Source of the DNA: Betaproteobacteria bacterium
GTDB lineage: Bacteria > Pseudomonadota > Gammaproteobacteria > Burkholderiales > Methylophilaceae
NCBI GenBank assembly: GCA_016867975.1
Contig: VGIC01000004.1
Coordinates: forward strand, 11,252 to 75,251
Direction: 5' to 3'
Length of the DNA: 64,000 bases
The position numbers were made by a program, and so were the translations under genes. Shown here one piece after another: positions 11,321-25,512 of the stretch. Positions within the stretch are counted from its first letter, which is position 1. Every line of letters begins with the position of its first letter. A model generated the notes under the pieces. The model was not told the DNA's origin. It saw only the letters and a program-made list of their open reading frames with translations, and did not search any database.

Positions 11321-11641
11321 TGGGGCATTCTGAAATAAAAGACTTCACGGAAAAAAGGTGTTCGATCGCCTGCTATCCAATCTCTATCCATCCGACAGCA
11401 AGCTCTTGATGTTACAAATGGCGCATCCACAAACCTAAAAAAAAGCAGTTAAAAAGCAAGTTAGAAGCCTAAACCACGTCCAGCAAGGCAACACCCTCAC
11501 CCTGCCCATCTATCTCAGGGAGAGTGACCGTGGATGACCCAGCCATTGGTTTTCCCGTGGAATATACACAATAATCTTATCAACAAAGAAGTGTAATATG
11601 TATTGGCGGGAGACAACACCTTGTATCAGGGAATGAATTGA

Positions 11642-11669
11642 CATATTATATAACTATATAGTTATTTAG
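11642..11669 (+). promoter_or_regulatory. AT-rich operator-like site upstream of ccoG
   Basis: Contains the perfect 16-bp palindrome ATAACTATATAGTTAT (11650-11665); 23/28 identical to 24128-24155. Confidence 0.55.
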
Positions 11670-11694
11670 AGTTATAACACTAAGGGGTGGTTAC

Positions 11695-13143
11695 ATGTTA
11701 GAAAAAAAAGAGAGAGCTTCCTCAAACACAAAAGCTGGCGTCTCAGATGATGCCGCTGTTATCAATCTTTATGCCGCTTCAGACAAGATATACCCGCGCA
11801 GCACATCTGGTTTTTTTACCCAATGGCGCTGGGTCATGATCTGGATGACCCAACTTTTCTTCTACGGTATGCCGTGGCTAGAATGGGGACAGCGTCAAGC
11901 ACTGCTATTTGACTTGGAAGCTCGCCGCTTCTATATCTTCAATCTGGTGCTGTATCCGCAAGATCTTATCTACCTGACCGCAATTCTGATTATTTCCGCG
12001 TTATCGCTGTTTCTATTCACCACGGTCGCAGGGCGCCTGTGGTGTGGTTACACTTGCCCGCAGACGGTCTACACCGAGATATTTCTCTGGATAGAGACCA
12101 AGGTCGAGGGGGATCGTGCCGCACGTATGAAGCTTGATGATGGCGAGCTATCGGTGAAGAAATTTGCCTCCAAGGTCACAAAACATCTGATCTGGGTTGC
12201 GTTTGCACTATGGACCGGCTTTAGTTTTGTTGGATACTTCACCCCCATCCGCGAGCTGGGAATATCTGTGACTAACCTCAGCTTGGGTCCATGGGAGACA
12301 TTCTGGGTGCTGTTCTACGGATTTGCCACCTATGGTAATGCAGGCTTTATGCGAGAGCAGGTCTGTAAATACATGTGCCCCTATGCGCGGTTCCAAAGCG
12401 CGATGTTCGATGATGACACCTTGATCGTCACGTATGACGAGCAACGCGGCGAACCTCGCGGAAAAGTGTCTCGCAAAGGAGACTTGAACACCACCAGTCA
12501 GGGCGCCTGCATTGATTGCAGCCTATGCGTTCAAGTGTGCCCAACCGGCATTGATATTCGCAAAGGGCTACAATATGAATGTATCGGCTGTGGCGCATGT
12601 GCAGATATCTGCGATACCGTGATGGACAAAGTCCACTCACCGCGCGGTCTGATCAGATACTCCACTCAAAACGCTGTCAGAAACGGGTGGTCACGCAATG
12701 AGATGTTGCGTCGCATCGCACGACCACGCGTCATGATCTATACCGGATTACTGATGATATTGACCATCGCCACCATCACCAGCCTGATCTTGCGACCGAC
12801 ATTCAAGGTAAATGTCATCCGTGATCGAGGCGTCATGGCACGTCTGGCTGAAGGCGGCATGCTGGAGAATGTGTATCGTCTGCAAATCATGAACGCCACA
12901 GAAACCCGGCAACATTATCAAATCAGTGCCAACGGTTTAGATAAGCTGGTACTGCAATCGGATGTCAATGATGCGCAAGGCACGGTAGCCGTTAATCCGG
13001 CTCAGTTGCGTTCGATTCCCGTGCGACTACAGATCCCAGACGGCACGAAGCCATCAGGCTCGCACCCTGTTAAGTTCAGCGTGAAATCAATTGAGCAGAA
13101 TGAGACCTTGGTCGAGAAGTCGGTGTTCCTCGTGCCGAGATAA
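11695..13143 (+). CDS. ccoG: Cytochrome c oxidase accessory protein CcoG/FixG (membrane 4Fe-4S protein)
   Basis: CGYTCPQ, CKYMCPY, CIDCSLCVQVCP and CIGCGACADIC motifs; C-terminal Ig-like FixG domain. Confidence 0.92.
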   Translation: MLEKKERASSNTKAGVSDDAAVINLYAASDKIYPRSTSGFFTQWRWVMIWMTQLFFYGMPWLEWGQRQALLFDLEARRFYIFNLVLYPQDLIYLTAILIISALSLFLFTTVAGRLWCGYTCPQTVYTEIFLWIETKVEGDRAARMKLDDGELSVKKFASKVTKHLIWVAFALWTGFSFVGYFTPIRELGISVTNLSLGPWETFWVLFYGFATYGNAGFMREQVCKYMCPYARFQSAMFDDDTLIVTYDEQRGEPRGKVSRKGDLNTTSQGACIDCSLCVQVCPTGIDIRKGLQYECIGCGACADICDTVMDKVHSPRGLIRYSTQNAVRNGWSRNEMLRRIARPRVMIYTGLLMILTIATITSLILRPTFKVNVIRDRGVMARLAEGGMLENVYRLQIMNATETRQHYQISANGLDKLVLQSDVNDAQGTVAVNPAQLRSIPVRLQIPDGTKPSGSHPVKFSVKSIEQNETLVEKSVFLVPR

Positions 13144-15850: not shown

Positions 15851-17790
<1,940 letters not shown>

Positions 17791-17799
17791 TTTTTACTC

Positions 17800-18192
17800 C
17801 TACAACCTTGTCTGCGCCGTCTGCAACCCATCGCTAACCCACGCATTGATACCCCCAGTCAGATTATATACCTGAGTAAATCCTGCCATCTGCAATTTGA
17901 TGGCGGCTTTAGCTGAACGTTTACCACTACGGCACTGCACGATGACCGAGCTATGTTTATATTGAGCGAGTTCGCTCAATCTTTGCTCCACCTGTGCAAG
18001 CGGGATATGAATCGCACCCGTAATATGTTGCGCCTGCCACTCATCTAATTCGCGAACATCGAGAATAATCGCTTCTTTACTGGCAACCATTGATGCTGCC
18101 TGCCTAGGGGAAACTGACGCCAACTCTGAAGAGCAAGCAGATAAAAATACTGATCCAATTAACGCCAAACTGACAGTACAGTTTTTAAACAT
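17800..18192 (-). CDS. Single-domain rhodanese (sulfurtransferase) lipoprotein
   Basis: Lipobox FLSA-C; LDVRE..EW...HITGA; active-site loop CRSGKRS; NLTGGINAW. Confidence 0.9.
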   Translation of the reverse strand: MFKNCTVSLALIGSVFLSACSSELASVSPRQAASMVASKEAIILDVRELDEWQAQHITGAIHIPLAQVEQRLSELAQYKHSSVIVQCRSGKRSAKAAIKLQMAGFTQVYNLTGGINAWVSDGLQTAQTRL

Positions 18193-18211
18193 GCCACTTC
18201 CCTTTTATTCA

Positions 18212-19612
18212 TCAATGAAAGATCTGGTTGATTTCCTGTAACCGTGGTTCGTCCAACTCTCCTGCCGCCGCAGAAAGATTAAGCAATGCCTGCAGCGTCT
18301 GGTATTTGCTGCGTGACAATGCAAGGCGGGTATTGTGCAACTCCTGCTCAGAATTCAGGACATCGAGCGTGGTGCGGTCACCCACATCGCGGCCTAATCG
18401 GGTTGAATCAAGCTTCACCTGTGCCGAATGTAACGCTTGTTCCAATGCCTTCACCTGACCCTGACCAACGGTCACTGCCATCCAGGCAGATCTTGCACTC
18501 TGCGCTACCTGCTGACGTGCAGAATCAGTCTGACTGCGCGATTTTTCTTCTAAAGCCAGCGCTTCCTGATATTTTGCATCGCGCATACCGCTACTGTAGA
18601 GCGGAATGGTCAACTGTACACCAAGACTCAGCTGCCGATTGGTCACATCAGCATCGCTGCCTATCAACCCCTGCAGACGCTCACCTCCCGCCTGCGCAAC
18701 CAGATTCACCGTCGGTGAGTATTTTGACTGAAACTTCTCGCTTTCAACCTGCGCGATTTCCTGCTGCAATTGCTGTGCATGCACCTGTGGATGATTAGTT
18801 TGTGCACGCGCCAGCCAGCTTTGCAAATCGCCATTCATATAGCGCTTGAAATCCACCTGATCAGTCATCTGCGCCAACCCTGCATCCTGATTGCCTGAGA
18901 AATCAGCCAATATCGCGCGACTAAGCTGCACATTACTTTCGGCCTCCATTATCTGTGAGCTCAGCATGTCATAACGCGCCTGCGTTTCATGCGTATCAAT
19001 GATGGCGGCATCCCCTTCTTTATAACGCGCCTGCGCACTCTCTAATGCCTTGGCCACCGCCAGTTGCTGCACCTTTACCGCAACAAGCGCGTCTGTAGCC
19101 AGCAGTGCATCAAAATAGGCCTGCGCCACACGCAGGATTAATTGTTGCGACTCTGCCTTCAACTGCACCTCCGCAAGTCTGGCCTGCTTGCTCAACTGGG
19201 TTGCCGAACTCGTACGAACCGCATCATACAGCGGCAACTCCGCACGCAGATTCAGATTCAAATCCAGACCACCATCCGTCTTGGTGCGAAAATCCGTTGT
19301 GCCTCCTGTACCGGAAGAGCCGCCGCCAAACTGTGCATTGGAAAATTGCGCATTGGCAATCTTGTTATCGCTACTTACTCCAGCCACGCCTGCATTCAAT
19401 GTTACTTGGGGACCTTTTAGCGCCGAGGCCTGCATGTTTTTTGTACGGCCAGCTTCAGCGGATGCTCTCGCAGAAGCAAAGGCAGGATCTTGCGTAAGCG
19501 CCAATCGCCAGGCTTCTAATAAATCCAAGGCCTGCACCTGACCTGAAACTAAGGTCAACAGCAAAAGGGTGCCACATATCAATGGTCGGGATGTCAATGA
19601 ACAAGTCCGCAT
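18212..19612 (-). CDS. TolC-family outer membrane efflux protein
   Basis: Signal peptide, LRVAQAYFD, LTIPLYSSG, RTTLDVLNSEQ. Start placed at the ATG at 19612, just after the DUF2892 stop. Confidence 0.9.
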   Translation of the reverse strand: MRTCSLTSRPLICGTLLLLTLVSGQVQALDLLEAWRLALTQDPAFASARASAEAGRTKNMQASALKGPQVTLNAGVAGVSSDNKIANAQFSNAQFGGGSSGTGGTTDFRTKTDGGLDLNLNLRAELPLYDAVRTSSATQLSKQARLAEVQLKAESQQLILRVAQAYFDALLATDALVAVKVQQLAVAKALESAQARYKEGDAAIIDTHETQARYDMLSSQIMEAESNVQLSRAILADFSGNQDAGLAQMTDQVDFKRYMNGDLQSWLARAQTNHPQVHAQQLQQEIAQVESEKFQSKYSPTVNLVAQAGGERLQGLIGSDADVTNRQLSLGVQLTIPLYSSGMRDAKYQEALALEEKSRSQTDSARQQVAQSARSAWMAVTVGQGQVKALEQALHSAQVKLDSTRLGRDVGDRTTLDVLNSEQELHNTRLALSRSKYQTLQALLNLSAAAGELDEPRLQEINQIFH

Positions 19613-19613
19613 A

Positions 19614-19823
19614 TCAGCAGCCAGCACGCACACCCAGTTTACGCAGGATATTTTCCATCAGACACCAGCCGGTAAAGCCACTTTGCAAAAGATTAACTCC
19701 CACAAAGGCCGTGAAGTAGAGCCAGTAGTGGCTCACAAAGAACGGACTTTCTGCCACGCCAAGCGCCAATGAAAGCAGAATAAAAAATCCAGCCATTACA
19801 CGAACAAATCTCCATGAAGTCAT
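19614..19823 (-). CDS. DUF2892 (YgaP-like) small membrane protein
   Basis: Two TM helices; VGVNLLQSGFTGWCL motif with the conserved Cys; C-terminal Cys. Confidence 0.85.
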   Translation of the reverse strand: MTSWRFVRVMAGFFILLSLALGVAESPFFVSHYWLYFTAFVGVNLLQSGFTGWCLMENILRKLGVRAGC

Positions 19824-19835
19824 ATCTAATTTCTC

Positions 19836-22800
19836 CTAATTAACATTCTGTTCAGCATATTTGTGACGGTAAGCCACAAAATAAAGCAACGGGATTACGA
19901 CCAGCGTCAGCACAGTCGAGACAAAAATACCAAAGATCAGCGAGATCGCCAGACCGTTAAAAATCGGGTCATCCAGAATAAAGAACGCACCTAGCATAGC
20001 CGACAAGGCCGTCAGCATAATAGGCTGTGCTCGGGTAATTGCCGAGTTTACCACCGCTTCTTTGAACGACTTGCCCAATGTGACTTCGAGATTAATAAAA
20101 TCCACCAGCAAAATAGAATTTCTGACAATTATCCCTGCCAATGCGATCATGCCAATCATTGAAGTAGCGGTAAATTGCGAGCCCAGTAATACATGTCCAG
20201 GCATCACCCCAATAATGGTCAGCGGAATCGGCGCCATGATGATCAGCGGGGTCAGATATGAACCAAACTGCGCGACCACCAACAGGTAAATCAATATCAA
20301 GCCTACCGCATAAGCCGCGCCCATGTCGCGGAAGGTTTCGTAAGTCACCTGCCACTCGCCATCCCATTTTATGGCATAGCTACGCTGAGTGCCTTCAGGC
20401 TGCTGAATAAAATATTCGCCTAGTGAGTCGCCACCAGGTACCGCTATTTTTGACACGTCCGAGCGCATGCCGAACATGCCGTATAACGGGCTATCCAGCT
20501 TACCAGCCATATCTCCCACCACATAATTGACCGGCAGCAGATCTTTATGAAAAATAGGTTGTTCGCGCTGATCCTCACGAATCAGTACAAGCTCACGTAT
20601 CGGCACCAGCTTGCCAGAAGATGTGGTCACTGAAAGTTTGAGCAAATCATCTGTATCGCCTTGCGATGCCACTGGTAAACTCAGGCGTGTCGCTGTTGGA
20701 TATTTGCTCTCATCATGCAAATAGGTCACCTCTTCTCCGGAAAGCCCTGCTCGTAAGGTACTGACAATCGCGGCCTGCGGCACGCCAAGCAATGCAGCTT
20801 TTTTCTTGTCCACTTCCAGAAAGATTCTTTTCGCATCTGCGATACTGCTGTCATCCGTATCAACAACACCTGCGGTACGCTCAAACACTTGCCGCACCTG
20901 TCTAGCCAAGCGTGTTCTGTCAGCATCATCCGGACCGTAGATCTCTGCAACAATTGGCGAAATCACTGGTGGTCCTGGCGGCACCTCGACCACTTTTACT
21001 TTAGCGCCAAGATTAAGTGCGATTTTCTGCAGTGCAGGGCGCATGCGGCTTGCAATTTCATGGCTTTGTTCGCTGCGATGATGCTTGTCGACCAGATTAA
21101 CCTGAATATCGCCAACTTCGCCACCGCTCCTCAAATAGTACTGACGGACCAAGCCATTAAAATTGATGGGGGCAGAAAATCCAACATAAGCCTGATAATT
21201 CGTCACCTCCGGCACAGTATTAAGATAGGCTGTCATCGCATGCAATACTGTTGCTGTTTTCTCTGGCGGCGTGCCAACAGGCATATCGACCACCACCTGA
21301 AACTCAGATTTATTATCAAACGGCAGCATCTTCATCACCACCAGCTGCGCAACTGGCAAAACTAATGAAATCAAAATCAATCCCAGCACAGCCAAGCTTA
21401 ATTTTCGTCGATTCTTCTTGCCACCTGCATCACGCAGGAATGGCGTAAAAATACGTGTAAAGACTGGCGCAATGCGTTTGGCCAGCGCATCCTCATGCTG
21501 GGCATGACGCAACCATATCCGCGATAACCAAGGGGTGATAATAAACGCAACGGCAAGAGAAATCAGCATCCCCATACTTGCGTTAATCGGGATTGGGCTC
21601 ATATACGGTCCCATCAAGCCACTGACGAAAGCCATAGGCAACAGTGCGGCAATCACCGTCAATGTAGCCAATATAGTTGGGCCACCGACCTCATCCACTG
21701 CCGCCGGAATAATTTCCGTCAGCGCTGCACTCGGCTTCAGCTTCATGTGCCGATGAATATTTTCCACCACCACAATCGCATCATCAACCAGAATCCCGAT
21801 AGAGAAAATCAGCGCAAACAAGGAGACTCGATTCAGCGTAAACCCCCACGCCCAAGATGCGAACAAAGTCGCGGTGAGCGTCAATATTACCGCTGCCCCC
21901 ACAATTGCGGCTTCCCGGCGCCCTAGTGCAACCAGCACCAGCAACACCACGGCCGAAGTGGCAAAAATCAGTTTTTGGATAAGCTTCTGCGCTTTTTCGT
22001 TGGCTGTTTCGCCATAGTTACGCGTGATCTTCACTTCCACGTCTGCAGGAATCAGCACATTCTTAAGGCTATCAATTTGCTTAATCACGGCATCAGAAAC
22101 TGCCACCGCATTCTGTCCTGGCTTTTTGGTCACACTTAATGTCACCGCAGGATACTCGGCGACGCTGCCCCCCTCCCCGTACCAGACAAATCGTTCTGCC
22201 GGCAATGGACCATCCGTTACTTCTGCCACTTCACCTAGATATACTGGCTGACCTGAGTGCAGTCCGACGACCAACTGGGCAACATCATCTGCATCTGCCA
22301 GATACTTACCCACCTCTACCGCAATCGCCTGATTGGCGTTGACCACTTCTCCCAAGGGGGCACCCAGATTCGCAGATTGCAATGCACTACGCAAATTTTC
22401 GATGGTGACGTTAGCCGATGCCATGCGTGCGGGATCCAGCATAATCTTTACCGCCCTGCCTGGCCCACCATGCGTCACGACTTCACGCGTACCTTTCACA
22501 TGCTTGATTTCTGCCTCCAGCGCATGTGCAACCCGCTCAAGTTCGTAAGCCCCCTGCTGATTGTTTTTTGTGTAGAGCGTCGCAGTCAGAATAGGCACAT
22601 CATCAATCCCTTTAGGTTTGACGATGGGTTCACCTACACCCAGGTTTTTCGGCAACCAGTCCTGATTAGACTGTATCGTGTTATACAGTCGCACCAATGC
22701 CTCGGTGCGCGGCACGCCTACTTCAAACTGTACGGTAATTACCGCCATACCCGGACGTGAAACTGAAGTCACATGCTCAATATCTGCAATTTGCGATAAC

Positions 22801-23039
22801 ACCTGCTCCGCTGGTACCGCAACCATCTGCTCAACATTTTTGGCAGATGCGCCTGGAAACGGAATGAGCACATTGGCCATCGTGACATTGATCTGCGGCT
22901 CTTCTTCACGCGGCGTCACCAGCAAGGCAAATAAGCCTAGCAGCAAAGCAATCAATGCAATCAAAGGCGTAATTTGTGCACTCTGGAAATATCTGGCGAT
23001 ACGTCCTGAAACACCTAAATTTTCTGCGTTATTGATCAT
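19836..23039 (-). CDS. RND efflux transporter permease (AcrB/AcrD/AcrF family)
   Basis: 1067 aa; two large periplasmic loops; ILVDDAIVVVENI and RAQPIMLTAL proton-relay motifs. Confidence 0.95.
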   Translation of the reverse strand: MINNAENLGVSGRIARYFQSAQITPLIALIALLLGLFALLVTPREEEPQINVTMANVLIPFPGASAKNVEQMVAVPAEQVLSQIADIEHVTSVSRPGMAVITVQFEVGVPRTEALVRLYNTIQSNQDWLPKNLGVGEPIVKPKGIDDVPILTATLYTKNNQQGAYELERVAHALEAEIKHVKGTREVVTHGGPGRAVKIMLDPARMASANVTIENLRSALQSANLGAPLGEVVNANQAIAVEVGKYLADADDVAQLVVGLHSGQPVYLGEVAEVTDGPLPAERFVWYGEGGSVAEYPAVTLSVTKKPGQNAVAVSDAVIKQIDSLKNVLIPADVEVKITRNYGETANEKAQKLIQKLIFATSAVVLLVLVALGRREAAIVGAAVILTLTATLFASWAWGFTLNRVSLFALIFSIGILVDDAIVVVENIHRHMKLKPSAALTEIIPAAVDEVGGPTILATLTVIAALLPMAFVSGLMGPYMSPIPINASMGMLISLAVAFIITPWLSRIWLRHAQHEDALAKRIAPVFTRIFTPFLRDAGGKKNRRKLSLAVLGLILISLVLPVAQLVVMKMLPFDNKSEFQVVVDMPVGTPPEKTATVLHAMTAYLNTVPEVTNYQAYVGFSAPINFNGLVRQYYLRSGGEVGDIQVNLVDKHHRSEQSHEIASRMRPALQKIALNLGAKVKVVEVPPGPPVISPIVAEIYGPDDADRTRLARQVRQVFERTAGVVDTDDSSIADAKRIFLEVDKKKAALLGVPQAAIVSTLRAGLSGEEVTYLHDESKYPTATRLSLPVASQGDTDDLLKLSVTTSSGKLVPIRELVLIREDQREQPIFHKDLLPVNYVVGDMAGKLDSPLYGMFGMRSDVSKIAVPGGDSLGEYFIQQPEGTQRSYAIKWDGEWQVTYETFRDMGAAYAVGLILIYLLVVAQFGSYLTPLIIMAPIPLTIIGVMPGHVLLGSQFTATSMIGMIALAGIIVRNSILLVDFINLEVTLGKSFKEAVVNSAITRAQPIMLTALSAMLGAFFILDDPIFNGLAISLIFGIFVSTVLTLVVIPLLYFVAYRHKYAEQNVN

Positions 23040-23054
23040 GTCAATTTAATGAAA

Positions 23055-24086
23055 TTACTTAAAGTTTGCTGCCGAGATAGGATCAAGTGCAATTTTTTCA
23101 CCGGCTTGCAAACCTGAAAAAACCTCAATGTTATCGCCCTGTTTTCGACCTAATCTTATCTGCCGTAACTGTGGCTGTCCTTTACTGTTCACCACATACA
23201 CGGCTGTTAACTCGCTACGTTTAACCACTGAGCTTGTCGGCACAATAATTTGAGGGGGTGCGTCACTCACAGCCACTGGCAACGCTGCACGTGCGAACAT
23301 GCCCGGACGCACGCTGGCAAGCCCTGGTGGCAAAGTCACACGAACCTTCACCATATTGCTCACCGCATCAGTTGTCGGTAATACTGTCACTTGTGTGCCT
23401 GTCAAACCACGCTCAGTTTCTATTGCAGCAGGAATCGACACCTGGATGCTTGTATCTTGCTTAATTTGTACTAACTGGCTCTGTGGCACATTCACGACTA
23501 CGCGTAACGCTTTGGGGTCATAAATAACCAATAGTGGCTTACCTGGCATCGCCATATCCCCCTGCTCAACGTTGACTTCAGCAACCAAGCCGGCATAAGG
23601 TGCATTAATAGTATGCAAACCAGTCTGCACATTAGCTGCACCTGTTTGTGCCAACTGCACTTTAGTTTGCGCCTCAGCTGCCTTGTAATCAGACTCTGCC
23701 CGCTCTAATGCCGCTTGACTGATATATTGTTTCTCATACAGGCGGCGTTTACGCTCAAACTCCTGACGCGCTGCATTCAACTGCGCATTGGCAGCCGTAA
23801 CCCGTGCCTGATTGGAGATTACTTGCTGATCGGCAATACGCATATCAATCCGTGCCAATAACTGCCCTGCTTTCACATAATCACCGGCTTTCACCGACAG
23901 TACGGTGATACTGCCTGCAACCTGTGGTGCAATTAAACTGGATTTAATCGCTTCAACCGTGCCTTCAGCTGTAACTGTCTGTGCCTGATGATGCGACTGT
24001 ATTGTCACCGTGGACAGCCCCGCCGCCCAAGCTACATTTAAACAGCCAGAAATTACCACCAACGCTATCAATAATGTTTTATTCAA
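23055..24086 (-). CDS. RND periplasmic adaptor (membrane fusion protein)
   Basis: APQVAGSI..VKAGDYVKAGQLL lipoyl motif, alpha-hairpin, INAPYAG, RPGMFAR. Confidence 0.92.
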   Translation of the reverse strand: MNKTLLIALVVISGCLNVAWAAGLSTVTIQSHHQAQTVTAEGTVEAIKSSLIAPQVAGSITVLSVKAGDYVKAGQLLARIDMRIADQQVISNQARVTAANAQLNAARQEFERKRRLYEKQYISQAALERAESDYKAAEAQTKVQLAQTGAANVQTGLHTINAPYAGLVAEVNVEQGDMAMPGKPLLVIYDPKALRVVVNVPQSQLVQIKQDTSIQVSIPAAIETERGLTGTQVTVLPTTDAVSNMVKVRVTLPPGLASVRPGMFARAALPVAVSDAPPQIIVPTSSVVKRSELTAVYVVNSKGQPQLRQIRLGRKQGDNIEVFSGLQAGEKIALDPISAANFK

Positions 24087-24127: not shown

Positions 24128-24155
24128 CATAATATATTACTGCATAGTTATATAG
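24128..24155. promoter_or_regulatory. Probable ArsR operator in the divergent arsR/efflux promoter
   Basis: CATAATATATTACTGCATAGTTATATAG, an imperfect palindrome between the two divergent starts; near-copy at 11642-11669. Confidence 0.65.
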
Positions 24156-24191
24156 TCAAACAATAAATTTTGTGTATAATGATTCTCGCAG

Positions 24192-24578
24192 ATGGACGAC
24201 GGATTTAATTTGATAGAAGAAAAAATGAGCGCATTGGATGACAGAGCACTTGAACATGTCGCCAGATACTTCAAAGCCTTGGCGGAGCCAATGCGATTAA
24301 AAGTATTAAGCGCCTTGCGGGACGGTGAAAGAAATGTTGGTGAGTTAACGGAAATCTCGGGCGGTTCACAAGCCAACGTGTCAAAACACCTGTCTTTGCT
24401 CACCCAATACGAATTAGTGAAACGGGAGTCTCGCGGCACTAGCGTGTATTATAAAATTGCCGACCCCAGCGTGTATACGCTGTGTGAATTAGTTTGCGGG
24501 CAAATCGGCAACCGATTGGCAGAGGCAGATGAAATCAAAAAACTGTTTTTACCCGACAACAAAAACAATTCAATATAG
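24192..24578 (+). CDS. ArsR/SmtB-family repressor with a C-terminal CxxxC
   Basis: FKALAEPMRLKVL, VGEL, SQANVSKHL winged HTH; only Cys are C98 and C102 (LCELVC). Confidence 0.92.
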   Translation: MDDGFNLIEEKMSALDDRALEHVARYFKALAEPMRLKVLSALRDGERNVGELTEISGGSQANVSKHLSLLTQYELVKRESRGTSVYYKIADPSVYTLCELVCGQIGNRLAEADEIKKLFLPDNKNNSI

Positions 24579-24617
24579 AGCCTCTTGCACAATAGCTGAA
24601 CAAAATGGTTTCAGCAG

Positions 24618-24647
24618 GAAAAATCTCACCCAAAGGTGAGATTTTTC
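24618..24647. terminator. Probable bidirectional terminator between arsR and suhB
   Basis: GAAAAATCTCACC-caaa-GGTGAGATTTTTC, a perfect 13-bp stem between convergent genes. Confidence 0.75.
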
Positions 24648-24705
24648 AATATCGGCGTGACCTGCCCCAAAAAGCCGATCCAATTTTTAAGTTAGTAAAA
24701 TCCGT

Positions 24706-25512
24706 TTATGCAGACGTTCTCAGGCTTGCAGTCAAGTGCGGATCCAAAGTTTGCAACATCTGCGCAAACACTTTCGGGTTGGCCGCTACGATGTTACCGG
24801 TTTTCAGCCAACTTTCATTGCCTTCAAAATCCCCTACAATACCGCCAGCTTCCTGTACCAACAAACCACCCGCTGCAATATCCCAAGTGGAAAGATTGAT
24901 CTCGAAAAAGCCATCAACCCAGCCCGCGGCCACGTAAGCCAAATCCAAAGCAGCAGAACCTGGACGACGAATGCCCGTGGTCTTTTTGATCATGTCTTTG
25001 AGCATCCCCATGTAAGTATCCAAATGCGTGAAATCGCGGAATGGGAAACCGGTAGCAATCAACGAGTCTTGCAGCCTGGTGCGCTTAGTTACGCGGATAC
25101 GCTTATCGTTCAAGAACGCACCACGACCTTTGGTCGCGGTAAACAGGTCATTATGCACCGGGTCGTAGATCACCGCTTGCGTCAGCACGCCTTTTTGCTG
25201 CAAAGCGATCGATATGCAATACTGGGGAAAACTGTGCAAAAAATTGGTTGTGCCATCCAGGGGATCAATGATCCAGATATTATCCGCTTGCTGATTACTC
25301 TCACCGCTCTCTTCTCCCAAGAAACCATGATCAGGATACGCCTCTTTGAGCGTCTCAATGATGGCCTGTTCTGCCGCACGGTCTACATCGCTCACAAAAT
25401 CATTATAGGTTTTGGATTGGATGACGAGTGAACCGACATCTTGCGAAGCGCGATTAATGATAGTGCCGGCTTTACGCGCGGCTTTGACTGCGTTGATGAG
25501 CATTGGGTGCAT
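24706..25512 (-). CDS. suhB: Inositol monophosphatase / Nus factor SuhB
   Basis: [32 protein letters not shown] and WDIAAG motifs; divergent from trmJ. Confidence 0.95.

Follow-up and report, generated by a model that had tools for sequence, protein, structure and literature searches.

Support for the proposed extension of an ArsR-type sulfide-response regulon with unusual sensor cysteines to an orphan ccoG in a Methylophilaceae genome

Several described regulators resemble the one considered here. SqrR, BigR, YgaV, SoxR and sHdrR have, like it, an ArsR fold and an autoregulated palindromic operator lying over divergent promoters, and their regulons likewise hold SQR, PDO, rhodanese and YeeE/YedE genes, often with RND pumps adjoining (10.1101/2025.02.17.638619). 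Unlike the ArsR of this work, sensors of the SqrR/BigR type carry a cysteine pair in helix 2 and helix 5 that forms an intraprotomer tetrasulfide, and they come off DNA when they react with persulfides. Within this family, the sulfide-sensing ArsR-type regulator YgaV of E. coli controls the terminal oxidase cydAB (PMC9774250), and loss of sHdrR or SoxR alters cbb3 oxidase transcripts (10.1101/2025.02.17.638619). In the literature on SqrR, BigR, YgaV, SoxR and sHdrR we found none for which a second operator directly at ccoG or at ccoNOQP-ccoG is reported, and in that on ccoG with sulfide, persulfide or ArsR we found no paper making an ArsR-ccoG link.

Operators of the SmtB/CzrA type (12-2-12) are long imperfect inverted repeats on which the ArsR dimer sits over the core promoter. 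The operator described below is also a long inverted repeat, and SmtB and CzrA are among the closest solved homologues of its presumed regulator, but the half-site sequence differs and their metal-ligand residues are absent here. As for the putative target, CcoG supplies Cu(I) for cbb3 assembly and is reportedly a cupric reductase (Marckmann et al. 2019).

A sulfide stimulon containing a ccoG homologue is on record for Azospira suillum PS, where RNA-seq gave 38 highly H2S-induced genes (Table S4 of Mehta-Kolte et al. 2017, PMC5358917). In the same table, fixG (Dsui_0928) under H2S shows log2 values of about 2 to about 10.5, and the adjacent Zn-dependent hydrolase gene Dsui_0929 and the RND-SQR operon Dsui_3440-3443 are co-induced; the authors take the sulfide-induced pumps for metal-sulfide exporters, and ccoG has 0 mentions in the main text (PMC5358917). 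The stimulon resembles the present system in combining an RND-SQR operon with an orphan fixG/ccoG paralog. It differs in that the gene beside Dsui_0929, Dsui_0930, encodes not an ArsR protein but a sigma-54 activator (PAS-AAA-DNA-binding), and no shared operator is described. Pseudomonas aeruginosa MpaR (PMC10790758) is similar in that, during cyanogenesis, a sensor of a respiratory poison drives an orphan cbb3-related gene, ccoN4, located away from the main cco operon, and dissimilar in its regulator family, its signal (cyanide) and its target, which is a catalytic subunit and not an assembly factor.

Two copies of one operator in the window

We analysed a stretch of 64,000 nucleotides of contig VGIC01000004.1, referred to as the window, whose coordinates are used throughout unless a contig is named. 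An earlier note, made from the letters of this stretch, had drawn attention to two similar 28-mers around an ATAACT..AGTTAT palindrome. Both are present as it described them. Site 1, CATATTATATAACTATATAGTTATTTAG (11642-11669), is separated by 25 nt from the ATG of ccoG (11695) and holds a perfect 16-bp palindrome, ATAACTATATAGTTAT; site 2, CATAATATATTACTGCATAGTTATATAG, occupies 24128-24155; the two are identical at 23/28 positions. The operator features are as follows, with scores from a position weight matrix (PWM) derived from other genomes and from R1, a sequence-only covariance model of the operator.

11650..11665, no strand: perfect 16-bp palindromic core, ATAACTAT followed by ATAGTTAT, from direct reading and pattern search
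11645..11670, no strand: O-ccoG operator, ATTATATAACTATATAGTTATTTAGA; PWM 28.2 bits, R1 18.5 bits
24131..24156, no strand: O-arsR/efflux operator, AATATATTACTGCATAGTTATATAGT; PWM 33.6 bits, aligning with about 28 orthologous arsR upstream regions

The operator is a 26-bp palindrome with the consensus ACTATATAACTATATAGTTATATAGT, built as 13+13 bp with TATATAAC half-sites and a 6-bp centre. O-ccoG agrees with the genus consensus palindrome at 23/26 positions, with 39.5 nt from its centre to the ATG of ccoG. It departs from the consensus at two positions that are invariant in arsR promoters (A22 to T and T26 to A), although the invariance of positions 22 and 26 may stem from the overlapping efflux -35 and not from repressor contacts. 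Inspection ruled out that the operator is a Zur, Fur or FNR box; a real FNR box occurs separately upstream of ccoN in another genome (G007, see below).

Sequences of the form ATAACT-N4-AGTTAT with at most one mismatch occur in the window at these two sites only (0.11 expected), and the form TATATAACT-N4-AGTTATATA, again with at most one mismatch, has just these two sites across the 1.56-Mb genome, the runner-up having 4 mismatches. For the PWM scan suggested by the earlier note, we derived the matrix from operators in other genomes (17 distinct sequences, none from the present genome) and searched the assembly (1.56 Mb, 44 contigs, 47.7% GC, 92.7% complete) in full and on either strand. After the arsR and ccoG sites, the next independent position reached 8.2 bits, leaving the ccoG site as the sole second operator; third candidates at C25:13675 and C22:11748-11756 were dismissed at about 8 bits or below. 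As a null we used 20 Mb of order-3 Markov sequence trained on windows of less than 38% GC from the same genome, in which the maximum was 15.4 bits and nothing reached 20 bits. Given the PWM gap and this maximum, equally good matches are not common in AT-rich DNA; the earlier note had named their being common there as fatal to its proposal.

The same figures bear on the idea that the site at ccoG has no function, being either a fortuitous product of AT-rich sequence or a decaying relic. Its AT-rich surroundings, the mismatches at two consensus-invariant positions and the lack of a clean promoter would agree with this idea, whereas the 20-bit gap to the next genomic match and the absence of any match of at least 20 bits in 20 Mb of random sequence speak against it. 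Further evidence comes from other species and is given below.

The ArsR regulator and its divergent efflux-SQR operon

The second operator copy lies between arsR and a divergently transcribed operon, with the following features.

24192..24578, plus strand: arsR (ArsR/SmtB family); PF01022 40.4 bits (cut-off 22), NF033788 85.8 bits (cut-off 55)
24153..24180, plus strand: predicted arsR promoter; -35 TAGTCA 24153-24158, 16-nt spacer, -10 TATAAT 24175-24180
24131..24159, minus strand: predicted efflux-operon promoter from a promoter scan; -35 TTGACT 24159-24154, 17-nt spacer, -10 TATATT 24136-24131
15851..24086, minus strand: predicted regulated operon (MFP, RND, TolC, rhodanese, Tll0287-like, SQR), divergent from arsR
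23055-24086, minus strand: MFP gene, with partial similarity to CzcB/NccB adaptors (154 bits)
19836-23039, minus strand: RND permease gene; multidrug-type HAE1 models 454 bits vs CzcA/CusA 229
18212-19633, minus strand: TolC gene
17800-18192, minus strand: rhodanese gene
17158-17790, minus strand: gene for a Tll0287-like haem/PAS protein (c-type haem, PAS-like), between rhodanese and SQR
15851-17122, minus strand: type I SQR gene; 612 bits to the Acidithiobacillus ferrooxidans SQR structure 3sz0

The operator covers the predicted efflux promoter wholly and overlaps the -35 of the predicted arsR promoter. The genus consensus block reads ACTATAT(A/T)AC(T/C)ATATAGTTATATAGT, then CAA (yielding a GTCAA after the palindrome that is conserved genus-wide), about 17 nt, and TGTATAAT, a block also conserved in relatives. 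Upstream of arsR the palindrome block is kept in about 28 Methylotenera genomes, whose orthologues show 69-82% protein identity, and arsR is divergent from the MFP-RND operon in 4/4 relatives examined. An ArsR-type autoregulatory operator is expected to be an inverted repeat over the regulator's own promoter, conserved at orthologous loci, and this is what was found; in the comparison of relatives that the earlier note had called for, the operator thus behaves as the conserved, presumably autoregulatory, site of this ArsR. By all these features the arrangement at 24131-24156 is the classical ArsR autoregulation layout.

The palindrome might nevertheless be bound by another regulator, its association with arsR being merely positional. 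We regard this as quite improbable. The operator lies over the divergent arsR/efflux promoters in every genome, much as in classical autoregulation; arsR is the sole regulator gene of the conserved cluster; and the motif was hit in 9/10 arsR+ genomes vs 1/14 arsR- genomes (Fisher p = 7e-5). Acidovorax, Derxia and Undibacterium keep the arsR/MFP-RND layout and have palindromes at the same position with a different inner sequence, and the recognition helix QANVSKHL is common to both ArsR groups that we met in the genus. Another regulator would, on the other side, suit the clade of G007 (below), which has its best palindrome at ccoN and only a half-site in its arsR promoter.

The protein has the winged-helix HTH_5 domain of the ArsR/SmtB family above the curated cut-offs. 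Its start is ambiguous (24192-24227). Judged from the predicted -10, use of the ATG at 24192 would mean a leader of about 5 nt; the ATG at 24225 (MSALDD) is the likelier start, judging from the conserved MSxLDD N-terminal motif of the orthologues. The only cysteines are C98 and C102 (LCELVCG), one helical turn apart in helix 5, and neither varies among 13 orthologues, which represent four phyla and range from Betaproteobacteria to Rubrobacter and Opitutaceae. No cysteine precedes residue 98 that could correspond to the helix-2 cysteine defining SqrR/BigR, and with the BigR model NF040642 the protein scores 40.8 bits vs a cut-off of 155. The genes at or beside the operators or arsR (SQR, rhodanese, PDO, YeeE/YedE, CoADR-rhodanese) are those of a SqrR/BigR regulon. 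We therefore judge from the missing helix-2 cysteine that this ArsR, while apparently resembling SqrR/BigR in its working, is not a member of that subfamily, and persulfide sensing by it would require other chemistry.

A rival reading keeps operator and ArsR but assumes a metal or metalloid effector of thiophilic character, such as Cu(I), Ag, Cd or As(III), which the dimer would bind through its four cysteines in helix 5. CzrA, SmtB and NmtR, the solved proteins closest to this ArsR, are metal sensors. Under this reading the regulon would serve metal efflux and copper handling, with the RND pump exporting metal or metal sulfide, CcoG reducing Cu(II), and SQR and rhodanese as accessories. The reported cupric reductase function of CcoG and the partly CzcB/NccB-like MFP (154 bits) would fit such a scheme, as would the view of the Azospira authors that sulfide-induced pumps export metal sulfide (PMC5358917). 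Nonetheless, we hold a metal effector to be unlikely: the canonical alpha3N and alpha5 metal ligands are all missing in the alignment, the RND permease fits HAE1 models better than those of CzcA/CusA, and SQR, rhodanese, PDO, YeeE/YedE and CoADR-rhodanese are conserved partners in three locus types.

With regard to the operon itself, its SQR is, by homology, bona fide. The Tll0287-like gene keeps its position in the corresponding cluster of another species (G062). A 110-aa ORF after arsR (24605-24937) has no family match, overlaps a convergent suhB-like inositol monophosphatase gene (24706-25512) and is probably not a gene.

The orphan ccoG, its 5' region and its conservation

The following features lie beside the first operator copy.

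11695..13143, plus strand: orphan ccoG, 482 aa; full-length match to TIGR02745, 510 bits (cut-off 317)
11638..11643, plus strand: TTGACA, a possible -35 hexamer found by direct reading, just left of the operator

The gene is intact, with all cysteines kept in CGYxCPQ, CKYMCP and both 4Fe-4S motifs. These cysteine columns are invariant across 38 homologues, and, as in CcoG/FixG/RdxA generally, the match to TIGR02745 is full-length and every cluster-binding cysteine is conserved, which places the protein in that family. The usual, though not obligatory, location of ccoG is downstream of ccoNOQP. The window copy is instead flanked by htpG and mutS, in agreement with the earlier note, which had seen no ccoNOQP neighbours. 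A ccoN gene is found on contig C2 (C2:96876), with a second ccoG after ccoP (C2:100151) that is 58% identical to the window copy, so the latter is a true orphan paralog. Compared with the usual CcoG it has no linkage to ccoNOQP or ccoHIS and is a duplicate drawn into a sulfide-response cluster.

A clean -10 at 16-18 nt from the TTGACA is absent, and a consensus promoter scan of the ccoG 5' region placed no sigma-70 promoter. As no clean -10 pairs with the TTGACA, the operator may either overlap the ccoG promoter or serve as a roadblock. The htpG-ccoG spacer is unusually long (445 bp), and an Rfam scan of it gave no match. Parts of it (11438-11621) are repeated elsewhere in the same genome, at C31:13528-13591 (83%), C13:38240-38361 (69%) and C9:53161-53197 (86%), and are absent from 92 other species of the genus; they give the appearance of a dispersed element, particular to this strain, that came to lie upstream of the operator by insertion. 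A different dispersed repeat, TCTATAAATGCAGAGTTTGAGA, is present on many contigs in both orientations (e.g. C5:28592, C15:31961, C17:12756, C18:2924 and C37:2366); it is possibly of the REP or MITE kind, or else a recurring regulatory or terminator box.

When R1 was run over 93 species of the genus, most positive genomes had a single site, at arsR. Two species, G051 and G062, have a second operator about 45 nt before the probable ATG of an orphan ccoG (TIGR02745, 513 bits). In both, this convergent ccoG lies next to a cluster of arsR and MFP-RND-TolC-rhodanese, extended in G062 by Tll0287-like and SQR genes; by comparison, ccoG and the SQR operon of the present genome are separated by mutS, apparently an insertion. 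When the three ccoG 5' regions are aligned, conservation is limited to the operator block TATATAAC(C/T)AnATAGTTAT(A/T)TAG, the flanks having diverged. The three orphans with an operator group together (support 100/99) when 38 CcoG sequences are placed in a maximum-likelihood tree, and their clade is nested among ccoP-linked copies. From the conservation of the operator block and the single orphan clade we conclude that the arrangement is, as far as alignment and tree can tell, an old duplication under selection. An origin by deletion of ccoNOQP between operator and ccoG found no support, as G051 and G062 share the orphan layout and the orphans form a clade of their own. Second sites at 17.7-18.3 bits in G054 (the spacer of ampD and a Ca-Na antiporter gene) and G086 have no sulfur or oxidase context and were set aside as probable noise.

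A regulon member should have an operator copy of its own near the promoter, with no further copies elsewhere in the genome and with conservation in front of orthologues; ccoG has such a second operator, conserved in two other species. The central proposal of the earlier note, that the ArsR regulon includes ccoG, thereby gains support, the more so as the operator apparently arose independently before ccoNOQP-ccoG in a separate clade. Each check in the earlier note that sequence analysis allows gave a favourable result. That the site is kept at a similar distance from ccoG in three species with diverged flanks, and arises independently at ccoN, adds to the scores given above and makes a chance look-alike or relic very improbable.

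The link has a narrow range. Zero matches to the operator were found in 80 ccoG loci (756 kb) of other Burkholderiales; it is therefore not a general ccoG promoter element. Most arsR+ Methylotenera have no operator at any ccoG gene, and ccoG lay near arsR in 0/12 arsR+ genomes checked outside Methylotenera, so the ArsR-ccoG link is confined to some Methylotenera lineages.

Other putative operator targets and a proposed oxidase logic

Four genomes (G007, G046, G003 and G002) have a ccoNOQP-ccoG operon with ATATAACTATACTGTTATATA about 185 bp ahead of ccoN, the sequence being followed by 17 nt and TTATAAT; the CcoG of this operon belongs to a different CcoG subclade. The operator is here distal to a perfect FNR/ANR box, TTGATATAAATCAA (L174 1534-1550 in G007), and as this box sits between the operator and ccoN, the layout suggests two stacked promoters for the G007 cbb3 operon, of which one would answer to sulfide and the other to oxygen. 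In this clade arsR shows 51-55% identity, shares the QANVSKHL recognition helix and an LCxLVCG motif, and lies in a locus with yeeE/yedE, a metallo-beta-lactamase (PDO-like) gene and DUF442/SQR, a gene set that is under BigR control in Acinetobacter (PMC7315123). The promoter of this second ArsR group (L009 1300-1500 in G007, with equivalents in G016, G004, G003, G002 and G022) holds a strongly conserved block, TATATAACTATATACTCATGTAATA, with one consensus half-site and a TATATA centre but without a symmetric partner, which would fit either an operator of variant geometry or overlapping promoter elements. As the arsR promoter of this clade has a single good half-site, we would like to note that it is by extrapolation, the recognition helix being conserved, that we expect its ArsR to bind at the ccoN site.

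In G011, a second operator precedes the gene of a CoA-disulfide-reductase/rhodanese fusion (579 aa), behind which come TenA-family and thioredoxin-2 genes. The same genome has another ccoG divergent from a candidate sigma-54 activator gene (L172 1676-3268; PAS_4, Sigma54_activat and HTH_8 confirmed), and G024 has one divergent from a candidate sigma-54 activator (L046 3-1452), a 406-aa ORF assigned by position and size. Both extra copies have a TGGCAC-N5-ATGCA (-24/-12) promoter in front, in the layout of Azospira Dsui_0930/fixG. This resemblance suggests that CcoG paralogs were recruited to circuits linked with sulfide on more than one occasion.

Taken together, we consider it probable that an ArsR-family repressor co-regulates the efflux-SQR operon, arsR and ccoG through its two operators, with sulfane sulfur as inducer, and that CcoG aids the oxidases. 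An ArsR dimer on the palindrome would block the efflux-SQR promoter, its own promoter and ccoG. One bound dimer would silence both the efflux-SQR operon and arsR, because the operator covers the efflux -35/-10 interval and the arsR -35; O-ccoG, about 40 nt before the start codon, would lie within or immediately upstream of the presumed ccoG core promoter, from which position the same repressor would keep ccoG off. The repressor would be released by an inducer, for which sulfane sulfur derived from sulfide and reacting with the invariant Cys98/Cys102 of helix 5 is the likeliest candidate, and the MFP-RND-TolC pump, rhodanese, haem protein, SQR, arsR and ccoG would come on together. CcoG, as a membrane 2x[4Fe-4S] cupric reductase, would then keep Cu(I) flowing to haem-copper oxidases under sulfide. 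Binding by ArsR, repression, the identity of the inducer and the role of CcoG under sulfide are what we infer.

Sulfane sulfur is favoured as inducer because every type of ArsR/operator locus encodes SQR, PDO, rhodanese, YeeE/YedE or CoADR-rhodanese, because the analogous Azospira operon is H2S-induced, and because the two ArsR cysteines are invariant. The sulfide-sensing context assumed in the earlier note is borne out by SQR and rhodanese in the operon, by the yeeE/yedE–PDO–SQR locus of the other-clade ArsR, by the operator at the CoA-disulfide-reductase/rhodanese fusion and by the H2S-induced fixG paralog of Azospira suillum.

The logic of inducing ccoG under sulfide would lie in the lack of cytochrome bd, the sensitivity of the remaining oxidases and the part of CcoG in supplying Cu(I). 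No cytochrome bd gene was found in the present genome (G000; 92.7%-complete assembly), where the only terminal oxidases found are one of cbb3 type (C2:96876) and a further haem-copper oxidase (C3:70756). Haem-copper oxidases are an established sulfide-inhibited class (summarised in PMC9774250).

A bolder reading, which we put forward tentatively and hold to be possible but rather doubtful, is that stand-alone CcoG is a dedicated, hitherto overlooked component of the bacterial response to sulfide stress, wired at least three times independently, and that this ArsR embodies a new sensing chemistry, a helix-5 CxxxC. If so, stand-alone CcoG would protect or re-metallate oxidase copper centres, or process membrane Cu/sulfur species, and two of the three wirings would use an ArsR operator, one at the orphan ccoG and one at ccoNOQP-ccoG, the third being a PAS-type sigma-54 activator beside ccoG (G011, G024 and Azospira).

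What is new and, on the comparative evidence and on indirect published expression data, supported is that an ArsR-type sulfide-response regulon with unusual sensor cysteines extends to CcoG. A regulon and an operator can now be provisionally assigned to a widespread, uncharacterised ArsR subfamily whose cysteine layout is unlike that of all described persulfide sensors, and the finding offers an explanation for the undiscussed H2S induction of fixG in Azospira suillum. The known bacterial answer to sulfide is a switch to the sulfide-insensitive cytochrome bd. An alternative would be a sulfide regulon that induces CcoG or, in some species, the whole cbb3 operon, and since the operator-ccoG link recurs in other species, oxidase maintenance appears to be part of the bacterial sulfide response.
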